A stretch of DNA of 23,285 nt from a virus (lineage: Duplodnaviria > Heunggongvirae > Uroviricota > Caudoviricetes), in the IMG/VR virus record IMGVR_UViG_2563366962_000008; one strand, 5' to 3'. Under the pieces are notes generated by a model. It was not told where the DNA came from. It saw only the letters and a program-made list of their open reading frames with translations, and did not search any database. Below are positions 3,554 to 23,285 of the stretch, piece after piece. Position 1 is the first letter of the stretch. The number at the start of each line of letters is the position of its first letter. The position numbers were made by a program, and so were the translations under genes.

Positions 3554-3901
3554 ATGGTGACGAAAACCATCACTGAACAGCGTGCGGAAGTACGTATTTT
3601 TGCCGGTAATGATCCGGCTCATACCGCCACAGGCAGCAGCGGGATTTCCTCGCCAACACCGGCTCTGACGCCCCTGATGCTGGATGAAGCCACCGGGAAA
3701 CTGGTGGTCTGGGATGGACAGAAAGCCGGTAGTGCGGTTGGCATACTGGTACTGCCGCTTGAAGGCACAGAGACGGTGCTGACCTATTACAAGTCGGGGA
3801 CCTTTGCGACGGAGGCAATCCGCTGGCCTGACAGTGTGGATGAACACAAAAAGGCAAATGCCTTTGCCGGCACAGCCCTGAGTCACGCGGCTCTGCCGTA
3901 A
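3554..3901 (+). CDS. D: Head decoration protein gpD
   Basis: 115-aa ORF with RBS TAGGAGG at 3537-3543; motifs DPAHTAT, TPLMLD, WDG, YKSGTF and AFAGTA match lambda gpD (110 aa). Confidence 0.9.
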   Translation: MVTKTITEQRAEVRIFAGNDPAHTATGSSGISSPTPALTPLMLDEATGKLVVWDGQKAGSAVGILVLPLEGTETVLTYYKSGTFATEAIRWPDSVDEHKKANAFAGTALSHAALP

Positions 3902-7914: not shown

Positions 7915-8354
7915 ACTTTGCCCTCAGACTGGCGCGTGAGATGGGGAGACCCGACTGGCGCGCCATGCTTGCCGGGATGACATCCACCGAATATGCCGAC
8001 TGGCACCGTTTTTACCGCACGCATTATTTTCAGGATACCCAGCTGGATATGCATTTTTCCGGGCTGACGTACGCTGTACTCAGCCTGTTTTTTTGCGATC
8101 CGGATATGCATCCCTCTGATTTCAGTCTGCTTGTCCCCCGGCATGAGGAAGAGCAGGTGGAGAGGCCGGATGAGGACAAAATGCTGATGCAGAAAGCGGC
8201 AGGACTTGCCGGAGGCGTCCGGTTCGGTGGGGACGGAGGGCGCGATATTTTATCGTCTGCGGATGTGGCGGATGTCATGGTGGATGATGCCGCATTAATG
8301 ATGGCTTCAGCGGGGATTCCGGGAGGTGTGAGATATGTCCCAGCCGGTTGGTGA
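7483..8354 (+). CDS. T: Tail assembly chaperone gpGT fusion made by -1 frameshifting at 7890-7896; T moiety about 7896-8354
   Basis: -1 frame ORF (track 7941-8354) reads MGRPDWRAMLAGM.STEYADWHRFY.THYF...DMHFSGLTY.VLSLFF.DPDMHP.DFSLL, matching lambda T as recalled; there is no independent RBS for T. Confidence 0.8.
7890..7896 (+). promoter_or_regulatory. Programmed -1 ribosomal frameshift slippery heptamer GGGAAAG (G to G-T)
   Basis: GGGAAAG sits 16 nt upstream of the G stop; the -1 frame is open from here to 8354 and encodes the T-like sequence; same heptamer and position as the lambda G|T shift. Confidence 0.7.
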
Positions 8355-10908
8355 TCTTGTTATTGACCTGAGTCTGGATGCTGTCCGTTTCGATGAGCAG
8401 ATGAGCCGGGTAAGGCGTCATTTTTCAGGTCTGGATACCGACGCCAGAAAAACCGCCAGTGCTGTTGAACAGGGCCTGAGCCGCCAGGCGCTGGCTGCAC
8501 AAAAAGCCGGGATTTCCGTCGGGCAGTATAAAGCGGCCATGCGAACCCTGCCCGCACAGTTTACGGATATCGCCACGCAGCTTGCCGGTGGTCAGAATCC
8601 CTGGTTGATCCTGCTGCAACAGGGCGGTCAGGTGAAGGACTCCTTCGGCGGGATGATCCCCATGTTCAGGGGGCTTGCCGGTGCGATCACCCTGCCGATG
8701 GTCGGGGTCACCTCGCTGGCGGTGGCGACAGGTGCGCTGGCGTACGCCTGGTACCAGGGCGACGCCACGCTTTCAGAATTTAATAAAACGCTGGTCCTTT
8801 CCGGCAATCAGGCCGGACTGACTGCCGATCGTATGCTGACGCTCTCAAGAGCCGGGCAGGCAGCAGGGCTGACGTTTAACCAGGCGAGAGAGTCACTGGC
8901 AGCCTTGGTGAATGCCGGTGTGCGTGGTGGTGAACAGTTTGATGCCATCAACCAGAGTGTCGCGCGTTTTGCGTCTGCATCCGGTGTGGAGGTGGATAAA
9001 GTCGCTGAAGCCTTCGGGAAGCTGACCACTGACCCGACGTCGGGACTGATGGCGATGGCGCGCCAGTTCCGTAACGTGACGGCAGAGCAGATTGCGTATG
9101 TTGCACAGCTGCAGCGTTCCGGAGACGAGGCCGGGGCATTGCAGGCGGCGAACGATATCGCCACGAAAGGCTTTGATGAGCAGACCCGTCGCCTGAAAGA
9201 AAACATGGGAACACTGGAGACCTGGGCGGATAAAACAGGGAAGGCATTCAAATCGATGTGGGATGCCATTCTGGATATCGGTCGTCCGGAATCCTCAGCG
9301 GATATGCTCGCCAGTGCGCAGAAGGCATTTGATGAGGCGGATAAAAAATGGCAGTGGTACCAGAGCCGGAGCCAGCGCCGGGGAAAGACCTCCTCTTTTC
9401 GTGCGAACCTTCAGGGGGCATGGGATGACCGGGAAAATGCCCGTCTGGGTCTGGCAGCGGCCACGCTGCAGTCGGATATGGAAAAAGCCGGTGAACTGGC
9501 GGCAAGGGACAGGGCTGAGCGTGAGTCGTCACAGCTGAAGTATACCGGAGAGGCGCAGAAGGCGTATGAGCGCCTGCAGACGCCGCTGGATAAATATACC
9601 GCCCGTCAGAAAGAGCTGAATAAGGCCCTGAAAGACGGAAAAATCCTGCAGGCGGATTACAACACGCTGATGGCGTCGGCAAAAAAGGATTATGAATCGA
9701 CGCTGAAAAAGCCGTCAGGTGTGAAGGTGTCTGCCGGTGAGCGCCAGGAAGACCGGGCGCATGCAGCCCTGCTGGCGCTTGAAACCGAGCTCAGGACGCT
9801 GGAAAAACACAGCGGTGTGAATGAGAAAATCAGCCAGCAGCGCCGGGATTTATGGGAAGCGGAAAGTCAGTATGTGGTCCTGAAAGAGGCCGCCACGAAA
9901 CGGCAGTTATCTGAGCAGGAAAAATCCCTGCTGGCTCATGAGAAAGAGACGCTGGAGTACAAACGCCAGCTGGCTGAGCTGGGAGACAAGATTGAACACC
10001 AGAAGCGGCTGAATGAGCTGGCACAGCAGGCGGCGCGGTTTGAACAGCAGCAAAGCGCGAAGCAGGCGGCAATCAGCGCAAAAGCCCGCGGCCTCACCGA
10101 CCGTCAGGCGCAGCGGGAGTCGGAAGAGCAGCGCCTTCGTGAGGTGTACGGTGATAATCCGGCTGCGCTGGCGAAGGCCACATCGGCACTGAAGAACACC
10201 TGGTCTGCGGAGGAGCAGCTTCGTGGAAGCTGGATGGCCGGGATGAAGTCCGGCTGGGGAGAGTGGGCGGAAAGTGCGACGGACAGTTTTTCGCAGGTTA
10301 AAAGTGTGGCCACGCAGACCTTTGACGGTATTGCACAGAATATGGCGGCGATGCTGACCGGCAGCGAACAGAACTGGCGGGGATTCACCCGTTCCGTGCT
10401 GTCCATGATGACAGAAATTCTGCTTAAGCAGGCAATGGTGGGGATTGTCGGGAGTATCGGCAGCGCCATTGGCGGGGCTGTTGGTGGCGGCGCATCCGCG
10501 TCAGGCGGTACAGCCATTCAGGCCGCTGCGGCGAAATTCCATTTTGCAACCGGAGGATTTACGGGAACCGGCGGCAAATATGAGCCAGCGGGGATTGTTC
10601 ACCGTGGTGAGTTTGTCTTCACGAAGGAGGCAACCAGCCGGATTGGCGTGGGGAATCTCTATCGGCTGATGCGCGGCTATGCCACCGGTGGTTATGTCGG
10701 TACACCGGGCAGTCTGGCTGACAGCCGGTCGCAGGCGTCCGGGACGTTTGAGCAGAATAACCATGTGGTGATTAACAACGACGGCACGAACGGGCAGATA
10801 GGTCCGGCTGCTCTGAAGGCGGTGTATGACATGGCCCGCAAGGGTGCCCGTGATGAAATCCAGGCACAGATGCGCGATGGTGGTCTGTTCTCCGGAGGTG
10901 GACGATGA
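8335..10908 (+). CDS. H: Tail tape measure protein gpH
   Basis: 857-aa ORF (lambda H is 853 aa) between G-T and M; long coiled-coil-like E/K/Q/A-rich centre and Gly-rich C-terminus; stop overlaps the M start as ATGA. Confidence 0.95.
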   Translation: MSQPVGDLVIDLSLDAVRFDEQMSRVRRHFSGLDTDARKTASAVEQGLSRQALAAQKAGISVGQYKAAMRTLPAQFTDIATQLAGGQNPWLILLQQGGQVKDSFGGMIPMFRGLAGAITLPMVGVTSLAVATGALAYAWYQGDATLSEFNKTLVLSGNQAGLTADRMLTLSRAGQAAGLTFNQARESLAALVNAGVRGGEQFDAINQSVARFASASGVEVDKVAEAFGKLTTDPTSGLMAMARQFRNVTAEQIAYVAQLQRSGDEAGALQAANDIATKGFDEQTRRLKENMGTLETWADKTGKAFKSMWDAILDIGRPESSADMLASAQKAFDEADKKWQWYQSRSQRRGKTSSFRANLQGAWDDRENARLGLAAATLQSDMEKAGELAARDRAERESSQLKYTGEAQKAYERLQTPLDKYTARQKELNKALKDGKILQADYNTLMASAKKDYESTLKKPSGVKVSAGERQEDRAHAALLALETELRTLEKHSGVNEKISQQRRDLWEAESQYVVLKEAATKRQLSEQEKSLLAHEKETLEYKRQLAELGDKIEHQKRLNELAQQAARFEQQQSAKQAAISAKARGLTDRQAQRESEEQRLREVYGDNPAALAKATSALKNTWSAEEQLRGSWMAGMKSGWGEWAESATDSFSQVKSVATQTFDGIAQNMAAMLTGSEQNWRGFTRSVLSMMTEILLKQAMVGIVGSIGSAIGGAVGGGASASGGTAIQAAAAKFHFATGGFTGTGGKYEPAGIVHRGEFVFTKEATSRIGVGNLYRLMRGYATGGYVGTPGSLADSRSQASGTFEQNNHVVINNDGTNGQIGPAALKAVYDMARKGARDEIQAQMRDGGLFSGGGR

Positions 10909-17995: not shown

Positions 17996-20900
17996 ATGAC
18001 AGTAAAAATTTCTGGCGTGCTTAAAGATGGCACAGGAAAACCAGTACAGAACTGCACCATTGTGCTGAAGGCCAGACGAACCAGCAGCACGGTGGTGGTG
18101 AACACGGTGGCCTCTGAAAATCCGGATGAAGCCGGACGTTACAGCATGGATGTTGAGCATGGTCAGTACAGCGTCACCCTGCTGGTTGAAGGTTTTCCGC
18201 CTTCACATGCCGGGACCATTACCGTCTATGAAGGTTCCAGACCAGGTACGCTGAATGATTTTCTCGGTGCCATGACGGAGGATGATGTCCGACCGGAGGC
18301 ACTGCGCCGCTTTGAGCAGATGGTGGAAGAGGTGTCACGTAACGCCTCCGCGGTTGCACAGAATACGGCAGCCGCGAAAAAATCAGCCAGCGATGCCAGT
18401 GCATCAGCCAGCGAGGCGGCAACTCATGCAACCGATGCTGCAGCCTCAGCACGTGCCGCCAGCACGTCAGCCGGACAGGCCGCGTCGTCGGCTCAGTCAG
18501 CGTCTTCCAGCGCAGGAACGGCATCGACAAAGGCCCGTGAAGCAGCAAAAAGTGCTGCTGCTGCAGAGTCATCAAAAAGCGCGGCAGCTACCAGCGCCAG
18601 TGCCGCGAAAACGTCAGAAACGAATGCCGCAGCGTCACAACAATCAGCAGCCACTTCTGCATCCACCGCGACCACGAAAGCGTCAGAAGCAGCCACTTCA
18701 GCACGGGATGCGTCGGCTTCAAAAGAGGCGGCAAAATCATCAGAAACGAACGCAGCCTCGAGCGCCAGCAGCGCAGCTTCCTCGGCAACGGCGGCAGCAA
18801 ATTCTGCGAAGGCGGCAAAAACGTCCGAGACGAACGCCAGGTCTTCTGAAACGGCAGCGGGACAGAGCGCCTCAGCTGCGGCAGACTCAAAAACAGCGGC
18901 TGCATTATCTGCCAGTGCCGCGTCAACAAGTGCCGGGCAGGCCTCAGCCAGTGCCACCGCCGCCGGAAAATCGGCAGAAAGTGCTGCATCGTCTGCTTCA
19001 ACAGCCACAACGAAGGCTGGCGAAGCCGCTGTACAGGCCAGCGCAGCAGCGAGGTCTGCTTCCGCAGCGAAGACATCCAAGACGAACGCGAAAGCGTCGG
19101 AAACCAGCGCAGAATCCTCAAAAACGGCTGCCGCATCGTCCGCCAGTTCGGCGGCGTCATCGGCATCATCTGCGTCTGCTTCAAAAGATGAGGCGACCAG
19201 ACAGGCGTCAGCAGCAAAGGGCAGCGCCACGACGGCATCCACGAAGGCGACAGAGGCAGCTGGCAGTGCGACGGCGGCAGCTCAGAGCAAAAGTACGGCG
19301 GAATCCGCGGCAACGCGCGCTGAGACAGCGGCAAAACGGGCAGAGGATATTGCATCCGCCGTGGCGCTTGAGGATGCGAGCACGACGAAAAAGGGGATAG
19401 TACAGCTCAGCAGTGCGACTAACAGCACTTCCGAGTCACTGGCGGCAACGCCAAAAGCCGTTAAGGCCGCGTATGAGCTGGCTAACGGGAAATACACCGC
19501 ACAGGATGCAACGACAGCACAGAAAGGGATAGTTCAGCTTAGCAACGCGACCAACAGCACATCTGAAATGCTGGCGGCAACGCCAAAGTCGGTAAAGGCA
19601 GCCTATGACCTTGCTAACGGGAAATATACTGCTCAGGACGCTACGACAGCACAAAAAGGAATTGTCCAGCTCAGTAGTGCAACCAACAGCACATCTGAAA
19701 TGCTGGCGGCAACGCCAAAGTCGGTAAAGGCAGCCTATGACCTTGCTAACGGGAAATATACTGCTCAGGACGCTACGACAGCACAAAAAGGAATTGTCCA
19801 GCTCAGTAGTGCAACCAACAGCACATCTGAAATGCTGGCGGCAACGCCAAAGTCGGTAAAGGCAGCCTATGACCTTGCTAACGGGAAATATACTGCTCAG
19901 GACGCTACGACAGCACAAAAAGGAATTGTCCAGCTCAGTAGTGCAACCAACAGCACATCTGAAATGCTGGCGGCAACGCCAAAGTCGGTAAAGGCAGCCT
20001 ATGACCTTGCTAACGGGAAATATACTGCTCAGGACGCTACGACAGCACAAAAAGGAATTGTCCAGCTCAGTAGTGCAACCAACAGCGCATCTGAAACGCT
20101 TGCCGCGACACCGAAAGCAGTGAAAGCAGCTAATAATAATGCGAATGGTCGGGTACCTTCTGCCCGTAAGGTGAATGGTAAGGCGCTTTCAGCGGATATA
20201 ACACTGACGCCGAAAGATATTGGTACGCTTAACTCAACAACAATGTCATTCAGCGGTGGTGCTGGTTGGTTCAAATTAGCAACGGTAACCATGCCACAGG
20301 CGAGTTCTGTTGTTTCAATTACGTTGATTGGTGGTGCGGGATTTAACGTGGGGTCACCTCAACAGGCAGGTATATCTGAACTTGTTTTGCGTGCAGGTAA
20401 TGGTAATCCGAAGGGGATTACTGGTGCTTTATGGCAGCGCACATCGACAGGGTTTACAAATTTTGCCTGGGTCAATACATCTGGTGATACTTACGATATT
20501 TACGTTGCAATCGGAAATTATGCGACTGGTGTAAATATTCAATGGGATTATACCAGTAATGCCAGCGTGACGATTCATACGTCACCAGCATATTCTGCTA
20601 ATAAGCCGGAAGGGTTAACGGACGGTACAGTTTATTCACTCTATACGCCATCAGAGCAGTTTTATCCGCCTGGCGCACCAATCCCGTGGCCATCAGATAC
20701 CGTTCCGTCTGGCTATGCCCTGATGCAGGGGCAGACTTTTGACAAATCTGCATACCCGAAACTTGCAGCCGCTTATCCGTCAGGCGTGATCCCTGATATG
20801 CGTGGCTGGACGATTAAGGGCAAACCCGCCAGTGGTCGTGCCGTATTGTCTCAGGAACAGGACGGCATTAAATCGCACACCCACAGCGCCAGCGCATCCA

Positions 20901-21367
20901 GTACGGATTTGGGGACGAAAAACACATCGTCGTTTGATTACGGAACCAAATCCACGAATAACACCGGGGCGCATACGCACAGTCTGAGTGGCTCTACGGG
21001 GTCTGCCGGTGATCATACTCATGGTAATGGTATTCGTTGGCCAGGAGGCGGCGGTTCTGCGTTAGCATTTTATGATGGCGGTGGGTTCACTTATGTCCAG
21101 GATTCACAGTATCAAGTAAGCCCGGGGACTTCTTCCCGTAGATCGTATTATCAACGTATTCAGACACAGTCAGCAGGTGCTCATACCCACTCGCTGTCTG
21201 GTACTGCAGCAAGTTCTGGCGCACATGCACATACTGTAGGTATTGGTGCGCATACGCACTCCGTTGCGATTGGTTCACATGGACACACCATCACCGTTAA
21301 CGCTGCTGGTAACGCGGAAAACACCGTCAAAAACATCGCATTTAACTATATTGTGAGGCTTGCATAA
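17996..21367 (+). CDS. stf: Side tail fibre protein Stf, intact, with Ala/Ser/Thr-rich shaft, internal 44-aa tandem repeats and His-rich C-terminal tip
   Basis: 1123-aa ORF; N-terminus [26 protein letters not shown]...[38 protein letters not shown] and C-terminus ...[31 protein letters not shown] match lambda Stf as recalled; TAATG overlap with tfa. Confidence 0.9.
19373..20131 (+). repeat. In-frame tandem array of 132-bp (44-codon) units inside stf, about 5.7 copies
   Basis: Units begin at 19373, 19505, 19637, 19769, 19901 and 20033 (partial); units 3-5 are identical at nucleotide level, units 1, 2 and 6 diverged; each encodes [44 protein letters not shown]. Confidence 0.85.
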
Positions 21368-21951
21368 TGGCATTCAGAATGAGTGAACAAGCACGGACCA
21401 TAAAAATTTATAATCTGCTGGCCGGAACTAATGAATTTATTGGTGAAGGTGACGCATATATTCCGCCTCATACAGGTCTGCCAGCAAACAGTACCGATAT
21501 TGCACCACCAGATATTCCTGCTGGCTTTGTGGCTGTTTTCAACAGTGATGAGGCATCGTGGCATCTCGTTGAAGACCATCGGGGTAAAACGGTTTATGAC
21601 GTAGCGTCAGGGGACGAGTTATTTATTTCTGAACTCGGTCCGTTACCGGAAAATGTTACCTGGTTATCGCCGGAAGGGGAGTTTCAGAAGTGGAACGGCA
21701 CAGCCTGGGTGAAGGATACGGAAGCAGAAAAAATGTTCCGGATCCGGGAGGCGGAAGAAACAAAAAACAACCTGATGCAGGTAGCCAGTGAGCATATTGC
21801 GCCGCTTCAGGATGCTGCAGATCTGGAAATTGCAACGGAGGAAGAAACCTCATTGCTGGAAGCCTGGAAAAAGTATCGGGTGTTGCTGAACCGTGTTGAT
21901 ACATCAACTGCACCTGATATTGAGTGGCCTACGAACCCTGTCAGGGAGTAA
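21367..21951 (+). CDS. tfa: Tail fibre assembly protein Tfa
   Basis: 194-aa ORF (lambda Tfa is 194 aa); [58 protein letters not shown] matches lambda Tfa as recalled. Confidence 0.9.
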
Positions 21952-22000
21952 TCATTGGGATTATGCCGCAGCACGTCTTAAGCAAGAACGTGCTGCGGTT
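21787..22000 (+). repeat. Direct repeat copy 1: tfa 3' end plus ~50 bp downstream
   Basis: ~215-bp segment (...catattgcgccgcttcaggatgctgcagatctggaaattgcaacggaggaag...cctgtcagggagtaatcattgggattatgccgcag...acgtgctgcggtt) recurs at 22836-23050 in the same orientation, roughly 85-90% identical by eye. Confidence 0.75.
21966..21998. terminator. Perfect 11-bp inverted repeat (stem-loop) between convergent tfa and the methyltransferase gene; possible bidirectional terminator or recombination site
   Basis: CCGCAGCACGT (21966-21976), 11-nt loop, ACGTGCTGCGG (21988-21998); T-run at 22008-22014; the element is conserved, with a 1-nt insertion, at 23015-23048. Confidence 0.4.
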
Positions 22001-22005
22001 GGATG

Positions 22006-22674
22006 CTATTTTTTCCCTGAAGCGGAAAACATTACTACAGTACCTTTAACCTTGGTTTTAACATTCTCGAAATGCTCTGAGAGTATATGTGTTAAGCCTT
22101 CTTCGGAATCTTTTGTGTTTGAAAAGATGCCTTTTTGATTGTAAATGCGCATCAGTTTTTGACCGAAGCTATTGTGCACAACGCCGTCACCAAGAATTGT
22201 GGCTCCGTATAGAGTTCCATCGTCAGTTAAGGCCTGCGCCGCATTGCGTATTACACAGCTTTTTGTAGATATATTTCCAGGCAGGCAGTGAAGAAGGTAA
22301 AACATGGAAATGGAATCAAATTGACCATGTAACGCCGCGGGATAAGGTTCAAAAACATCATGGCTAATTTTATGTTTAATTTTTGATTCCCCAGCCCTTG
22401 TCGATGCCGCGTTCAGGCTAGCTTCGTTCAAATCCATTAAAGATATCAGACTACTCTCAGGTACGTGAGTAAGGTAAAACCCAGTTCCAACACCAATATC
22501 CAGATGGTTGTTACCTACATGTTCCAGAAAGTGTGGAAGAAGGTGTTCCTTTGTAGGACATCCCCATGCAAGCCGATTTGATACTCCCAAAACCCACCAG
22601 TCATAAAGCTTTAGGGTAAGTGGTGTGTAAATTTTAGCCCCATCATCTGTGTTTTTTTTCATTAATTTCACCAT
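22006..22674 (-). CDS. Class I SAM-dependent methyltransferase (Rossmann-fold), substrate unknown; AT-rich moron
   Basis: 222-aa minus-strand ORF; motif I LDIGVGTGFY (D-x-G-x-G-x-G); acidic residue after beta-2 (LMDLNE); alternative start at 22662 (MKKNTDD) preceded by GGTGA; composition much more AT-rich than the phage genes. Confidence 0.65.
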   Translation of the reverse strand: MVKLMKKNTDDGAKIYTPLTLKLYDWWVLGVSNRLAWGCPTKEHLLPHFLEHVGNNHLDIGVGTGFYLTHVPESSLISLMDLNEASLNAASTRAGESKIKHKISHDVFEPYPAALHGQFDSISMFYLLHCLPGNISTKSCVIRNAAQALTDDGTLYGATILGDGVVHNSFGQKLMRIYNQKGIFSNTKDSEEGLTHILSEHFENVKTKVKGTVVMFSASGKK

Positions 22675-22730
22675 GTTATAGTTTTATTTGTGAATTAAAT
22701 CAATTATGGCGATGAATTACAAGGGGTTAA

Positions 22731-23000
22731 ATGCTGCCGCAGCATAGCGATATTGAAATAGCCTGGTATGCTTCGATACAGCAGGAGCCGAATGGCTGGA
22801 AGACCGTCACCACACAGTTCTACATCCAGGAATTCAGTGAGTATATTGCGCCACTGCAGGATGCTGTAGATCTGGAAATCGCAACGGAGGAAGAAAGATC
22901 GTTGCTGGAGGCATGGAATAAATATCGGGTATTGTTGAATCGTGTTGATACATCAACTGCACCTGATATTGAGTGGCCTGCAAATCCTGTCAGGGAGTAA
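22731..23000 (+). CDS. Tfa C-terminal-domain paralogue fragment (89 aa); either a remnant or a short expressed product
   Basis: ATG at 22731 preceded by AAGGGG; the C-terminal 52 aa ([52 protein letters not shown]) closely match the Tfa C-terminus at 21367-21951; the N-terminal 37 aa are unrelated. Confidence 0.5.
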
Positions 23001-23050
23001 TCATTGGGATTATGCCGCAGACACGTCGTATGCAGGAACGTGCTGCGGTT
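22836..23050 (+). repeat. Direct repeat copy 2: tfa-like 3' end plus conserved downstream stem-loop
   Basis: Matches 21787-22000; includes the inverted repeat CCGCAGACACGT ... ACGTGCTGCGG at 23015-23048. Confidence 0.75.
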
Positions 23051-23114
23051 AGTTTGTGAGCTTTCGATAGTGGTTGTTATTTTTGCCCTTATTTGTTCCG
23101 GAGGCCATGGTTCA

Positions 23115-23285
23115 ATGGTCCGTCTGCCCCCTGTGGTGATGTCAGCAAAATCAGCCACTGCGCGAACCACAATAGCCCGGGAAGATGCTGAAGATCACCA
23201 GGTAAAGCTATCAGCGCAGAAACTGGAAGAACTGCTCGCATCAATGGTTAAGGATGAGGTTGATCGCAATGATGGGATTTATTGA
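23115..23285 (+). CDS. Small hypothetical protein (about 56 aa), function unknown
   Basis: ATG at 23115 with GGAGG 10 nt upstream (23100-23104); ORF ends at a TGA at the window edge; translation MVRLPPVVMSAKSATARTTIAREDAEDHQVKLSAQKLEELLASMVKDEVDRNDGIY; the track ORF start at 23004 is TTG inside the repeat and is unlikely. Confidence 0.3.
   Translation: MVRLPPVVMSAKSATARTTIAREDAEDHQVKLSAQKLEELLASMVKDEVDRNDGIY

Follow-up and report, generated by a model that had tools for sequence, protein, structure and literature searches.

Lambdoid phage genomes reportedly evolve by modular exchange and illegitimate recombination, and in the picture associated with Hendrix, Casjens and colleagues they are said to contain mosaic joints and partial-gene relics. 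At such joints, partial genes lie at module boundaries in the non-essential region by the attachment site, and a cargo gene ('moron') of low GC content and with its own orientation stands between the partial genes. The same arrangement exists in the window, i.e., the whole stretch of 23,285 nucleotides from the virus record IMGVR_UViG_2563366962_000008 (Caudoviricetes) that was analysed here. It has no difference of substance from the lambdoid joints and is notable only for its two nested relics, which belong to two chaperone families.

Both families are found among the described tail-fibre assembly proteins. Proteins of the Tfa type (Caudo_TAP, PF02413), such as lambda Tfa, Mu U/TfaMu and P2 G, possess two domains and approximately 175–195 residues in total. 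According to PMC9608196, which summarises North et al. 2019, fibre binding is the task of the variable N-domain, and oligomerisation is ascribed to the conserved, helical C-terminal domain. Proteins with DUF4376 are experimentally defined tail-fibre chaperones in the Alteromonas phage V22 (gp27; PMC7289586, PMC10579305). In the case of E. coli K-12, the cryptic prophage DLP12 contains tfaD (b0561), ybcY (b0562) and a tfa fragment, which has been named tfaX (b0563, formerly ylcE) for decades. The papers found on tfaX cover only the intergenic promoter island between tfaX and appY in K-12, not the fragment itself.

The last segment of the window (22731–23285) is very probably made up of two stacked, dead gene remnants that stayed behind when the tail-fibre module at the right end of a lambda-like prophage was replaced more than once. 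The features around it are as follows.

17996–21367: stf, the side tail fibre gene, directly before tfa
21367–21951, + strand: tfa, an intact tail-fibre assembly gene of 194 aa (Caudo_TAP, E = 1.3e-44, residues 72–191)
21775–22000, + strand: first repeat copy (direct repeat families D1 and D2), covering the final 59 codons of tfa and the next 50 nt downstream, with a hairpin at ~21965–21999
22006–22674, − strand: class I SAM-dependent methyltransferase, homolog of K-12 ybcY (Pfam Methyltransf_12/23/25/11)
22675–22730, − strand: spacer of 56 nt with 27% GC between the divergent methyltransferase and 89-aa ORF
22731–23000, + strand: 89-aa ORF, homolog of DLP12 tfaX, from ATG 22731 to TAA 23000
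22731–22823, + strand: codons 1–31 of the 89-aa ORF, without detectable relatives outside the tfaX cassette
22824–23000, + strand: codons 32–89 of the 89-aa ORF, the 3' end of a tfa allele
22824–23050, + strand: second repeat copy, the tfa 3' remnant plus a hairpin (~23014–23049)
23097–23285, + strand: 3' remnant of a DUF4376-type tail-fibre chaperone gene, about residues 103–163 of the intact 187–192-aa proteins
23115–23285, + strand: 56-aa ORF, from ATG 23115 to TGA 23283–23285

In the 89-aa ORF, residues 31–86 match only positions 75–130 of the 131 positions in the Caudo_TAP profile (E = 6e-25; 88.3 bits against a cut-off of 22.1), and residues 32–86 align with the Mu TfaMu chain 5YVQ_B (E = 1.8e-9). 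The original prediction of a Tfa C-terminus behind an unrelated N-terminus is borne out, with the last ~59 residues following 31 unrelated ones that match no Pfam family. Compared with Tfa proteins, residues 32–89 form a bona fide C-terminal domain, but the ORF has nothing of the N-terminal, fibre-binding domain and is undergoing decay across the population. It is also not situated after a fibre gene: the position right after the cognate fibre gene is held by the real tfa at 21367, and the ORF is preceded by the oppositely oriented methyltransferase. Its Shine-Dalgarno sequence, previously called good, is present but moderate (AAGGGG, separated from the ATG by 4 nt), and the promoter scan gives no convincing plus-strand promoter for the ORF. 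Both small ORFs are already marked as pseudogenes by NCBI PGAP, which labels 22824–23000 'tail fiber assembly protein; incomplete; missing N-terminus'.

By sequence comparison, the 89-aa ORF is a homolog of K-12 tfaX and as such is already known, so that it carries little weight as a discovery and is real but ordinary. The order tfa, ybcY, tfaX is common to the window, K-12 DLP12, PhiR26_1 and 2G7b, and their DNA is nearly identical across the initial ~200 nt of the ORF; for K-12, the near-identity runs from the methyltransferase start. The four-way alignment hardly varies within its first ~260 columns, and K-12 tfaX has the same start codon and the same 31 N-terminal codons. The K-12 locus also differs from the window. 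K-12 tfaX carries TGG>TGA at codon 62, inside the domain, and ends at 61 aa, whereas the frame in the window reaches 89 aa. The 3' end of K-12 tfaX is also different and is followed by appY-ompT, whereas the DUF4376 stub and the ompW attachment site follow in the window. Meanwhile, ybcY is a pseudogene in K-12, and the methyltransferase in the window is intact. The tfaX-specific junction (22675–22835) is widespread: it is found at a coverage of at least 80% in 3437 of 5426 complete E. coli genomes (63%), with up to four copies per genome. Altogether, 3821 E. coli genomes contain the junction, in ~4800 copies.

Along the two tfa 3' ends, a DNA repeat is formed that includes both stem-loops. The local alignment of 21775–22000 with 22824–23050 spans 227 columns at 88.5% identity and extends 50 nt past both stop codons. 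The stem-loop that the original prediction placed after the 89-aa ORF therefore lies within this repeat. The first hairpin has a folding energy of −28.5 kcal/mol (z −4.8), and the second, with one extra bulged A, has −24.1 kcal/mol (z −2.7). The codon differences between the two tfa 3' ends comprise 11 synonymous and 7 non-synonymous changes. Since the 11.5% divergence is mostly synonymous, the two ends appear to be different alleles joined by recombination rather than a duplication made by the insertion. The nucleotide alignment, proposed earlier as a means of dating a duplication, thus modifies the reading of the fragment as the relic of a second tfa displaced by a cargo insertion: the relic stands, as a decaying tfaX homolog, but the displacement is only loosely right, since two alleles have recombined. 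For the intact copy, the counterpart in the related phage PhiR26_1 carries the annotation Tfa, and the one in E. coli ATCC 11775 is listed as a tail fiber assembly protein.

The decay of the 89-aa ORF is evident from 117 sampled copies, which were drawn with a neutral 35-nt DNA anchor to avoid a bias towards intact methyltransferases. The 86–89-aa frame is kept in 76 copies (65%). A non-Tfa C-terminus, giving 101 or 110 aa and lacking the conserved C-terminal 14 residues, is present in 17 (15%). The remaining 24 (20%) are truncated or frameshifted, with 11, 28, 32, 61, 66, 68 or 106 aa, representing at least seven independent events. Such lesions in related genomes had been named beforehand as a sign of neutral decay, and they include the K-12 nonsense codon and a 7-bp deletion in the 2G7b counterpart; in one further copy, a deletion joins codon 16 to the DUF4376 stub. 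At the same loci, the methyltransferase, which is 2.5-fold longer, is intact in 105 of 112 cases. Furthermore, ORF codons 1–35 contain 3 synonymous, 7 non-synonymous and 1 stop segregating sites (10.5% of sites, pN/pS 0.61), compared with 14 synonymous and 6 non-synonymous in the methyltransferase (3% of sites, pN/pS 0.12; by Fisher test, the class ratio gives p = 0.03 and the site density p = 0.001), a count that leaves out copies misaligned through indels. The polymorphism of the 89-aa ORF looks near neutral, with no detectable purifying selection, in tests whose power is limited by few sites in sequences mostly at least 97% similar and by copies that are not phylogenetically independent. 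Both this result and the missing fibre-binding domain speak against the previously suggested alternative chaperone module.

One argument against a dead remnant comes from the same sample: two thirds of the copies keep the 86–89-aa frame, in which the C-terminal Tfa domain is complete, the start usable and the Shine-Dalgarno sequence moderate; the ORF may yield a dispensable but real 89-aa product. In addition, lambdoid late transcription is antiterminated by Q and could read through the hairpin, and both stubs may well be transcribed. Such a product could be a detached C-terminal domain that oligomerises with full-length Tfa proteins, either aiding assembly of the phage's own fibre or interfering, as a dominant-negative decoy, with the Tfa that superinfecting phages bring. 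The retained part corresponds to the conserved helical domain described in PMC9608196 and is matched by 5YVQ_B, the ORF has its own PHROG family (phrog_2341, matched across the full length), and the K-12 annotation lists tfaX as a CDS and not a pseudogene. A working protein of this kind is nevertheless very unlikely, considering the at least seven independent truncating lesions, the 15% of copies without the conserved C-terminal residues, the K-12 stop inside the domain, the pN/pS of ~0.6 against 0.12 in the neighbouring gene and the PGAP label of an incomplete pseudogene. The lack of a convincing plus-strand promoter points the same way, as does PADLOC, whose defence-system models match neither the 89-aa ORF nor the 56-aa ORF nor the methyltransferase.

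The second remnant is derived from a different chaperone family. In tblastn, the remnant aligns with phiP27 L57, Rac-SA53 tail4 and SerU-LTIIb stf2 at 55–63% identity over 86–89 residues (E down to 1e-24). These intact relatives match PF14301 (DUF4376), whereas the PF14301 profile gives no hit with the 56-aa fragment alone. The likeness to the DUF4376 chaperones covers their C-terminal ~89 residues when the 56-aa ORF is read through its stop, and, as in the intact 187–192-aa genes, which stand immediately behind tail-fibre genes with no further gene before attR, the remnant is the last coding sequence before attR. Unlike them, it lacks the N-terminal ~100 residues, contains an in-frame TGA and has no fibre gene upstream, so that only the last ~90 codons of a complete ~190-aa ORF are left. 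The TGA (23283–23285) is located where the intact relatives carry Gln or Arg, the homology continues for 27 codons past it, and it is present in all 42 copies examined. The corresponding PGAP label is 'DUF4376 domain-containing protein; internal stop; missing N-terminus'. The small ORF of unknown kind with a GGAGG ribosome-binding site, as originally described, does exist, with GGAGG at 23100–23104, 10 nt upstream of the ATG, but it is a DUF4376 stub. Both protein and DNA alignments start at ~23097, before the ATG, which indicates that GGAGG represents ancestral Ser-Gly-Gly codons rather than a dedicated ribosome-binding site. An ATG nearer to the motif, at 23107, opens a frame of 10 codons only.

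The window edge does not conceal a continuation of the locus. Beyond 23285, only 81 nt of the DUF4376 pseudogene and ~220 nt of an AT-rich attachment arm are found before the attachment site inside ompW, so that the prophage ends ~300 nt past the window, and the flank towards the attachment site is common to the window's prophage and SerU-LTIIb. A multi-gene accessory locus extending past the edge, which had been proposed together with the methyltransferase, is thereby contradicted, in agreement with the PADLOC result. The 56-aa ORF does end exactly at the window edge, as was noted at the outset, but approximately 27 of the 42 related copies, all of them IMG/VR provirus contigs, break off exactly at the same TGA. 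This suggests an artefact of contig cutting, probably because the contigs are trimmed at the last called gene. At the ends of provirus contigs, small ORFs with plausible ribosome-binding sites can be pseudogene stubs, and the edge itself a result of trimming.

The order of blocks leftwards from the ompW attachment site is consistent with serial replacement. First come the last ~90 codons of a DUF4376-type chaperone gene with its in-frame TGA. They are followed by 59 terminal codons from an older allele of tfa, with the hairpin at their end, by the methyltransferase cargo gene on the opposite strand, and finally by the stf-tfa pair now in use, which is intact and has a hairpin copy of its own. 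Each remnant would mark a joint at which incoming DNA with a new fibre module was joined to the resident chaperone gene at an internal point, presumably by non-homologous or short-homology recombination; this history is what we infer from the block structure. The 3' stubs would never have been removed because the area is non-essential. On the same reading, the 89-aa ORF would owe its existence to an ATG on the flank of the methyltransferase cassette that by chance shares the frame of the tfa stub, and the 56-aa ORF to a Met codon inside the DUF4376 stub, ahead of the nonsense mutation; neither would need to be translated for any role. The window would thus be a textbook-type example of how serial tail-fibre swaps leave nested chaperone 3' stubs beside an attachment site.

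The tfa stub also still takes part in exchange. At least three Tfa-type C-terminal variants (ANPVRE, EEPDTM and TSPAE) occur at the stub, and about ten or more different downstream contexts are situated behind it. Such a variety of C-terminal alleles and downstream neighbours indicates that other tfa genes continue to recombine with the stub through homology. In 2G7b and Ayreon, with different fibre genes, the left flank of the cassette is another tfa 3' stub. The segment might instead act as DNA and not as protein, with the two direct copies of the tfa 3' end and hairpin serving as portable homology arms, through which any phage with a related tfa could gain the methyltransferase cassette or loop it out. 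The bracketing of the cassette by tfa 3' ends in the window, and in 2G7b and Ayreon even without a full tfa, would fit such a role, as would the repeated homologous exchange at the right-hand stub and the presence of the junction, up to four times per genome, in 63% of complete E. coli genomes. This reading is nonetheless very unlikely: the same pattern is expected of any conserved repeat and does not in itself show selection for it; the loci L089, L091 and L092 lack any tfa sequence to the left, even though both the methyltransferase and the right-hand stub are there; and the one methyltransferase deletion seen (Ayreon) lay inside the cassette and not between the repeats, leaving both flanks.

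The two ideas can be joined, such that a free Tfa C-domain of the tfaX type, made late and encoded in ~63% of E. coli genomes, would co-oligomerise with the Tfa of co-resident or superinfecting phages, while the tfa 3' ends would spread the cassette. The combination is just as doubtful as the homology-arm role, but if true, the tfaX-type product would either poison the fibre assembly of rivals, a cheap form of inter-phage competition, or cross-chaperone their fibres. A small RNA encoded by the segment, either Rfam IS009 (RF02111; end-to-end at 22754–22957, + strand, 112.5 bits, E = 4.5e-27) or a CssrB-like RNA that has the hairpin at its end, is highly improbable, because the IS009 score is below the gathering score of 117 and rises to 223.8 bits on the coding 3' part of intact tfa (21710–21908), so that IS009 is in effect a model of tfa coding sequence, and because the weak matches of the hairpins to the CssrB 3' end reach 32–36 bits, far below the gathering score of 76. 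In PMC5331693, IS009 was left out of the ncRNA analysis, among Rfam hits expected to carry ribosome footprints.

In the dead-remnant reading, the 31 N-terminal codons of the 89-aa ORF would belong to the flank of the methyltransferase cassette. In a sensitive blastn search against 50,697 phage records, they were found in tfaX contexts only (15 records), the most divergent copy being that of Ayreon (90.6%), which is itself a 32-codon stub followed by unrelated DNA. A Tfa-derived origin of these codons is unsupported, as only one of the six reading frames is faintly Tfa-like. An older context was also sought in Enterobacter methyltransferase homologs of 61–65% identity, which have neither tfa flanks nor upstream DNA similarity.

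The methyltransferase itself is an AT-rich cargo gene (41% GC) that is convergent with tfa. The ORF comprises 222 aa, with the true start likely at Met5 (22662); phrog_2132 covers residues 5–222, and related records annotate the protein as 'YbcY' or class I SAM-dependent methyltransferase. The 5' part of the segment likely has only one working role, as the upstream (promoter) region of this divergent gene. On the minus strand, the spacer contains one sigma-70-like site, with a −35 element TTAACC (22730–22725) and a −10 element CATAAT (22708–22703), which overlaps the Shine-Dalgarno sequence of the 89-aa ORF; it is a consensus match only, not enriched over shuffles in the promoter scan. The spacer is identical in 57 of 80 copies, and the others form six variants that differ by one or two bases.

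The window comes from a lambda-like prophage and represents its structural (late) arm. At the right end of the window, three chaperone-gene 3' ends stand in a row, namely those of the intact tfa, a tfa stub and a DUF4376 stub, with a methyltransferase gene between the first two, and both stubs are decaying.

Features of the late arm (gene names as in related annotated records)
J-like ORF, 1159 aa
lom-like ORF, 199 aa
17996-21367, stf, side tail fibre gene, 1123 aa
21367-21951, tfa, 194 aa
~21965-21999, hairpin 1, after tfa, -28.5 kcal/mol, z -4.8
22006-22674, minus strand, class I SAM-dependent methyltransferase, 222 aa (Pfam Methyltransf_12/23/25)
22731-23000, plus strand, 89-aa ORF
~23014-23049, hairpin 2, second copy
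23115-23285, plus strand, 56-aa ORF, whose TGA is the final triplet of the window

Within stf, a 132-nt (44-aa) unit is tandemly repeated at 19389-20100 (5.4 copies, 93% identity). The copy number of this unit probably varies between phages, because stf is shorter in related records (3078 nt in PhiR26_1 and 3108 nt in ATCC 11775, against 3372 nt in the window).

The original prediction described 22731-23285 accurately: the ORFs, the Tfa C-domain, the repeat, the hairpin and the stop at the window edge are confirmed, and the 89-aa ORF, suspected to be the relic of a second tfa, is a tfaX-type stub. The ORF matches Pfam Caudo_TAP (E = 6e-25) at residues 31-86, which cover only profile positions 75-130 of 131, and the solved Mu Tfa chain 5YVQ_B aligns to residues 32-86; residues 1-31 have no match in the Pfam search. 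The cryptic prophage DLP12 of E. coli K-12 MG1655 carries tfaD, ybcY and tfaX in the same order as the window, the methyltransferase is named 'YbcY' in the PhiR26_1 record, and the 89-aa ORF is tfaX. In a four-way DNA alignment of the window, K-12, PhiR26_1 and 2G7b, the stretch from the methyltransferase start to the first ~200 nt of the ORF is almost invariant, and the copies diverge beyond it. K-12 tfaX is only 61 aa long because codon 62 is changed from TGG to TGA, the ORF of 2G7b has a 7-bp deletion, and that of PhiR26_1 consists of unrelated sequence from 14 codons before its end. Of 5426 complete E. coli genomes, 3437 contain the tfaX-specific junction (22675-22835) at >=80% coverage, and single genomes have as many as four copies. 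For E. coli strain ATCC 11775, the NCBI annotation (PGAP) labels the equivalent of 22824-23000 'tail fiber assembly protein; incomplete; missing N-terminus'. The region is not new: it has been described as tfaX/ybcY of DLP12 and annotated as pseudogenes by PGAP.

For the frame of the 89-aa ORF, 120 IMG/VR contigs were fetched by a 35-nt exact anchor across the start codon, which makes the sampling independent of the intactness of both adjoining ORFs, and 117 copies were assessable. An 86-89-aa frame with a Tfa-type C-terminus is found in 76 copies (65%), a 101- or 110-aa frame with an end that is not Tfa-like in 17 (15%), and a truncated or frameshifted ORF of 11, 28, 32, 61, 66, 68 or 106 aa in 24 (20%). 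The broken copies stem from at least seven different lesions, an outcome that the original prediction itself had counted as a refutation of a functional gene. The methyltransferase, 2.5-fold longer, is intact in 105/112 of the same loci. The unique first 35 codons of the ORF contain 3 synonymous, 7 non-synonymous and 1 nonsense segregating sites (10.5% of positions, pN/pS 0.61), compared with 14 synonymous and 6 non-synonymous sites in the methyltransferase (3.0% of positions, pN/pS 0.12). By Fisher's exact test, the two differ in class ratio (p = 0.03) and site density (p = 0.001), with few sites and non-independent copies in these comparisons. Although the numbers are small, all tests agree in showing constraint on the methyltransferase and none on the 89-aa ORF.

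A working 'mini-Tfa' would accord with the intact majority of copies and with the correspondence of the stub to the conserved Tfa C-terminal domain, which is described as the oligomerisation module, the N-domain binding the fibre (PMC9608196). However, such a product is unlikely given the range of lesions, the position of the K-12 stop within the domain and polymorphism that is near neutral, and the difference in constraint leaves the earlier idea of an alternative chaperone module unsupported. In an extra copy from an earlier sample (L009-L088), a deletion fuses tfaX-type codon 16 in frame to the DUF4376 stub, giving a 40-aa frame whose part beyond the joint is SAQKLEELLASMVKDEVDRNDGIY; this fusion, too, indicates that arbitrary rearrangements are tolerated in the region.

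The two tfa 3' ends form a direct repeat (21775-22000 and 22824-23050; 227 columns, 88.5% DNA identity), which reaches 50 nt beyond both stop codons and includes the hairpin. They differ at 25 positions and one indel, with 11 synonymous and 7 non-synonymous codon differences among the 58 common codons, a pattern that would be expected of two alleles that separated when both still functioned as genes. A duplication made by cargo insertion, the displacement proposed earlier, would not be expected to give it, and the stub would be no recent duplication. Across the loci, the stub ends in at least three Tfa-type C-termini (…ANPVRE, …EEPDTM and …TSPAE) and about ten or more different sequences lie downstream of it; therefore, the stub still recombines with other tfa genes. 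Phages 2G7b and Ayreon have other fibre genes without a complete tfa, and a further tfa 3' stub and hairpin lie left of their cassette. The data would also fit duplicated ends that serve the cassette as homology arms, but they give no evidence of selection, and such a role is considered highly improbable. A small RNA at 22754-22957 is rejected, since the Rfam IS009 alignment there (112.5 bits) lies below the threshold of 117 and the same model (RF02111) reaches 223.8 bits in the intact tfa, over the 3' part of its coding sequence (21710-21908). IS009 is classed as an RNA gene; what it models appears to be tfa coding sequence and not an independent RNA. It was left out of an ncRNA analysis, in an Rfam group expected to carry ribosome footprints (PMC5331693); its coincidence with tfa coding sequence is an observation of the present analysis, not of that study.

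The 56-aa ORF, previously a small unknown ORF, was translated through its TGA and searched against phage genomes. In three phage proteins, phiP27 L57 (188 aa), Rac-SA53 tail4 (187 aa) and SerU-LTIIb stf2 (192 aa), the C-terminal ~89 residues are 55-63% identical to the read-through peptide (E values down to 1e-24). All three match Pfam DUF4376; their genes directly adjoin or overlap the end of a tail-fibre gene, and no more than one annotated gene separates any of them from attR. In Alteromonas phage V22, DUF4376 proteins are tail-fibre chaperones (PMC7289586; also PMC10579305). A Gln or Arg codon of the relatives is replaced by the TGA, which is present in 42/42 copies examined, and the homology runs 27 codons past it and on into the flank towards the attachment site, a flank that SerU-LTIIb also has. 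PGAP annotates the equivalent of 23097-23366 as 'DUF4376 domain-containing protein; internal stop; incomplete; missing N-terminus'. Judged by this homology, the 56-aa ORF is the stub of a chaperone gene other than tfa. Both predicted ribosome-binding motifs exist, but the AAGGGG of the 89-aa ORF has a short 4-nt spacing to its ATG, and the GGAGG, 10 nt before the ATG of the 56-aa ORF and 2 nt before another ATG that opens only ten codons, represents old Ser-Gly-Gly codons, because the alignment to the relatives begins upstream of the ATG (SGGHGSMVRL against NAGPDSLARL).

Past the window equivalent, ATCC 11775 contains 81 nt of pseudogene, ~220 nt of A-rich DNA and a truncated ompW at the ~23589 equivalent, followed by yciE, yciF and the trp operon. 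In the phage 204576 record, the same DNA is followed by a surrogate 3' end of ompW, carried by the phage, and next by the integrase on the minus strand. Therefore, the window ends ~300 nt short of the attachment site, and the suggested accessory locus does not continue past it. The surrogate (~120 nt, ~80% identical to the host copy) lies beside attP (8300-8420 in locus L003 against 7990-8115 in L004), so that integration should regenerate the complete ompW reading frame. Because ~27/42 related copies (all IMG/VR provirus contigs) stop at the base equivalent to 23285, the shared end of ORF and window is probably due to trimming of the contigs after the last gene called.

The ompW prophage would once have ended in a fibre gene, a DUF4376 chaperone gene and attR, an ending still present in Rac-SA53 and SerU-LTIIb. 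A crossover within the DUF4376 gene may have replaced all DNA to its left by a stf-tfa module, and a later crossover within that older tfa may have introduced the present stf-tfa and the methyltransferase cassette. The stubs presumably persist because the region is dispensable. Both ORFs would be by-products, the 89-aa ORF of an ATG in the cassette flank in frame with the stub, and the 56-aa ORF of an internal Met ahead of a nonsense codon.

The methyltransferase has 41% GC, against 55% for the whole window. The PHROG profile and Enterobacter homologs begin at the second in-frame ATG (Met5, 22662), which is probably the true start; the upstream ATG is missing in 13/112 sampled copies, with the 218-aa frame still kept. 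A sigma-70-like site, TTAACC-16-CATAAT, on the minus strand at 22730-22703 overlaps the Shine-Dalgarno sequence of the 89-aa ORF and is a consensus match only, no better than shuffled sequence in the promoter scan. As a working role of the segment's 5' part, we would propose only that of methyltransferase upstream region. In Ayreon (L103, 3232-3960), the methyltransferase ORF is deleted, and its last ~12 codons and upstream region remain, together with a tfa 3' stub, the hairpin and a decayed 32-codon tfaX start, which is direct evidence that the cargo gene can go while the flanks stay. Chromosomal Enterobacter homologs (61-65% identity, match at 2501-3157 of L096, L098, L099 and L100) have tfa sequence on neither side and show no DNA similarity upstream; the E. 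coli phage pool may have acquired the gene from a non-phage context.

The hairpins match Rfam CssrB weakly and below threshold (32-36 bits against a gathering score of 76). The hairpin after tfa (21965-21999, 23014-23049) also occurs in Rac-SA53 (L007, ~3775-3815), behind a DUF4376 chaperone gene that is unrelated to tfa. There, it has a near-identical loop and inner stem, ACGTCGTATGCAAGAACGT, and an outer pair with changes at both positions, A-T to G-C. The hairpin has the look of a conserved element at the end of the late operon, shared between chaperone families.
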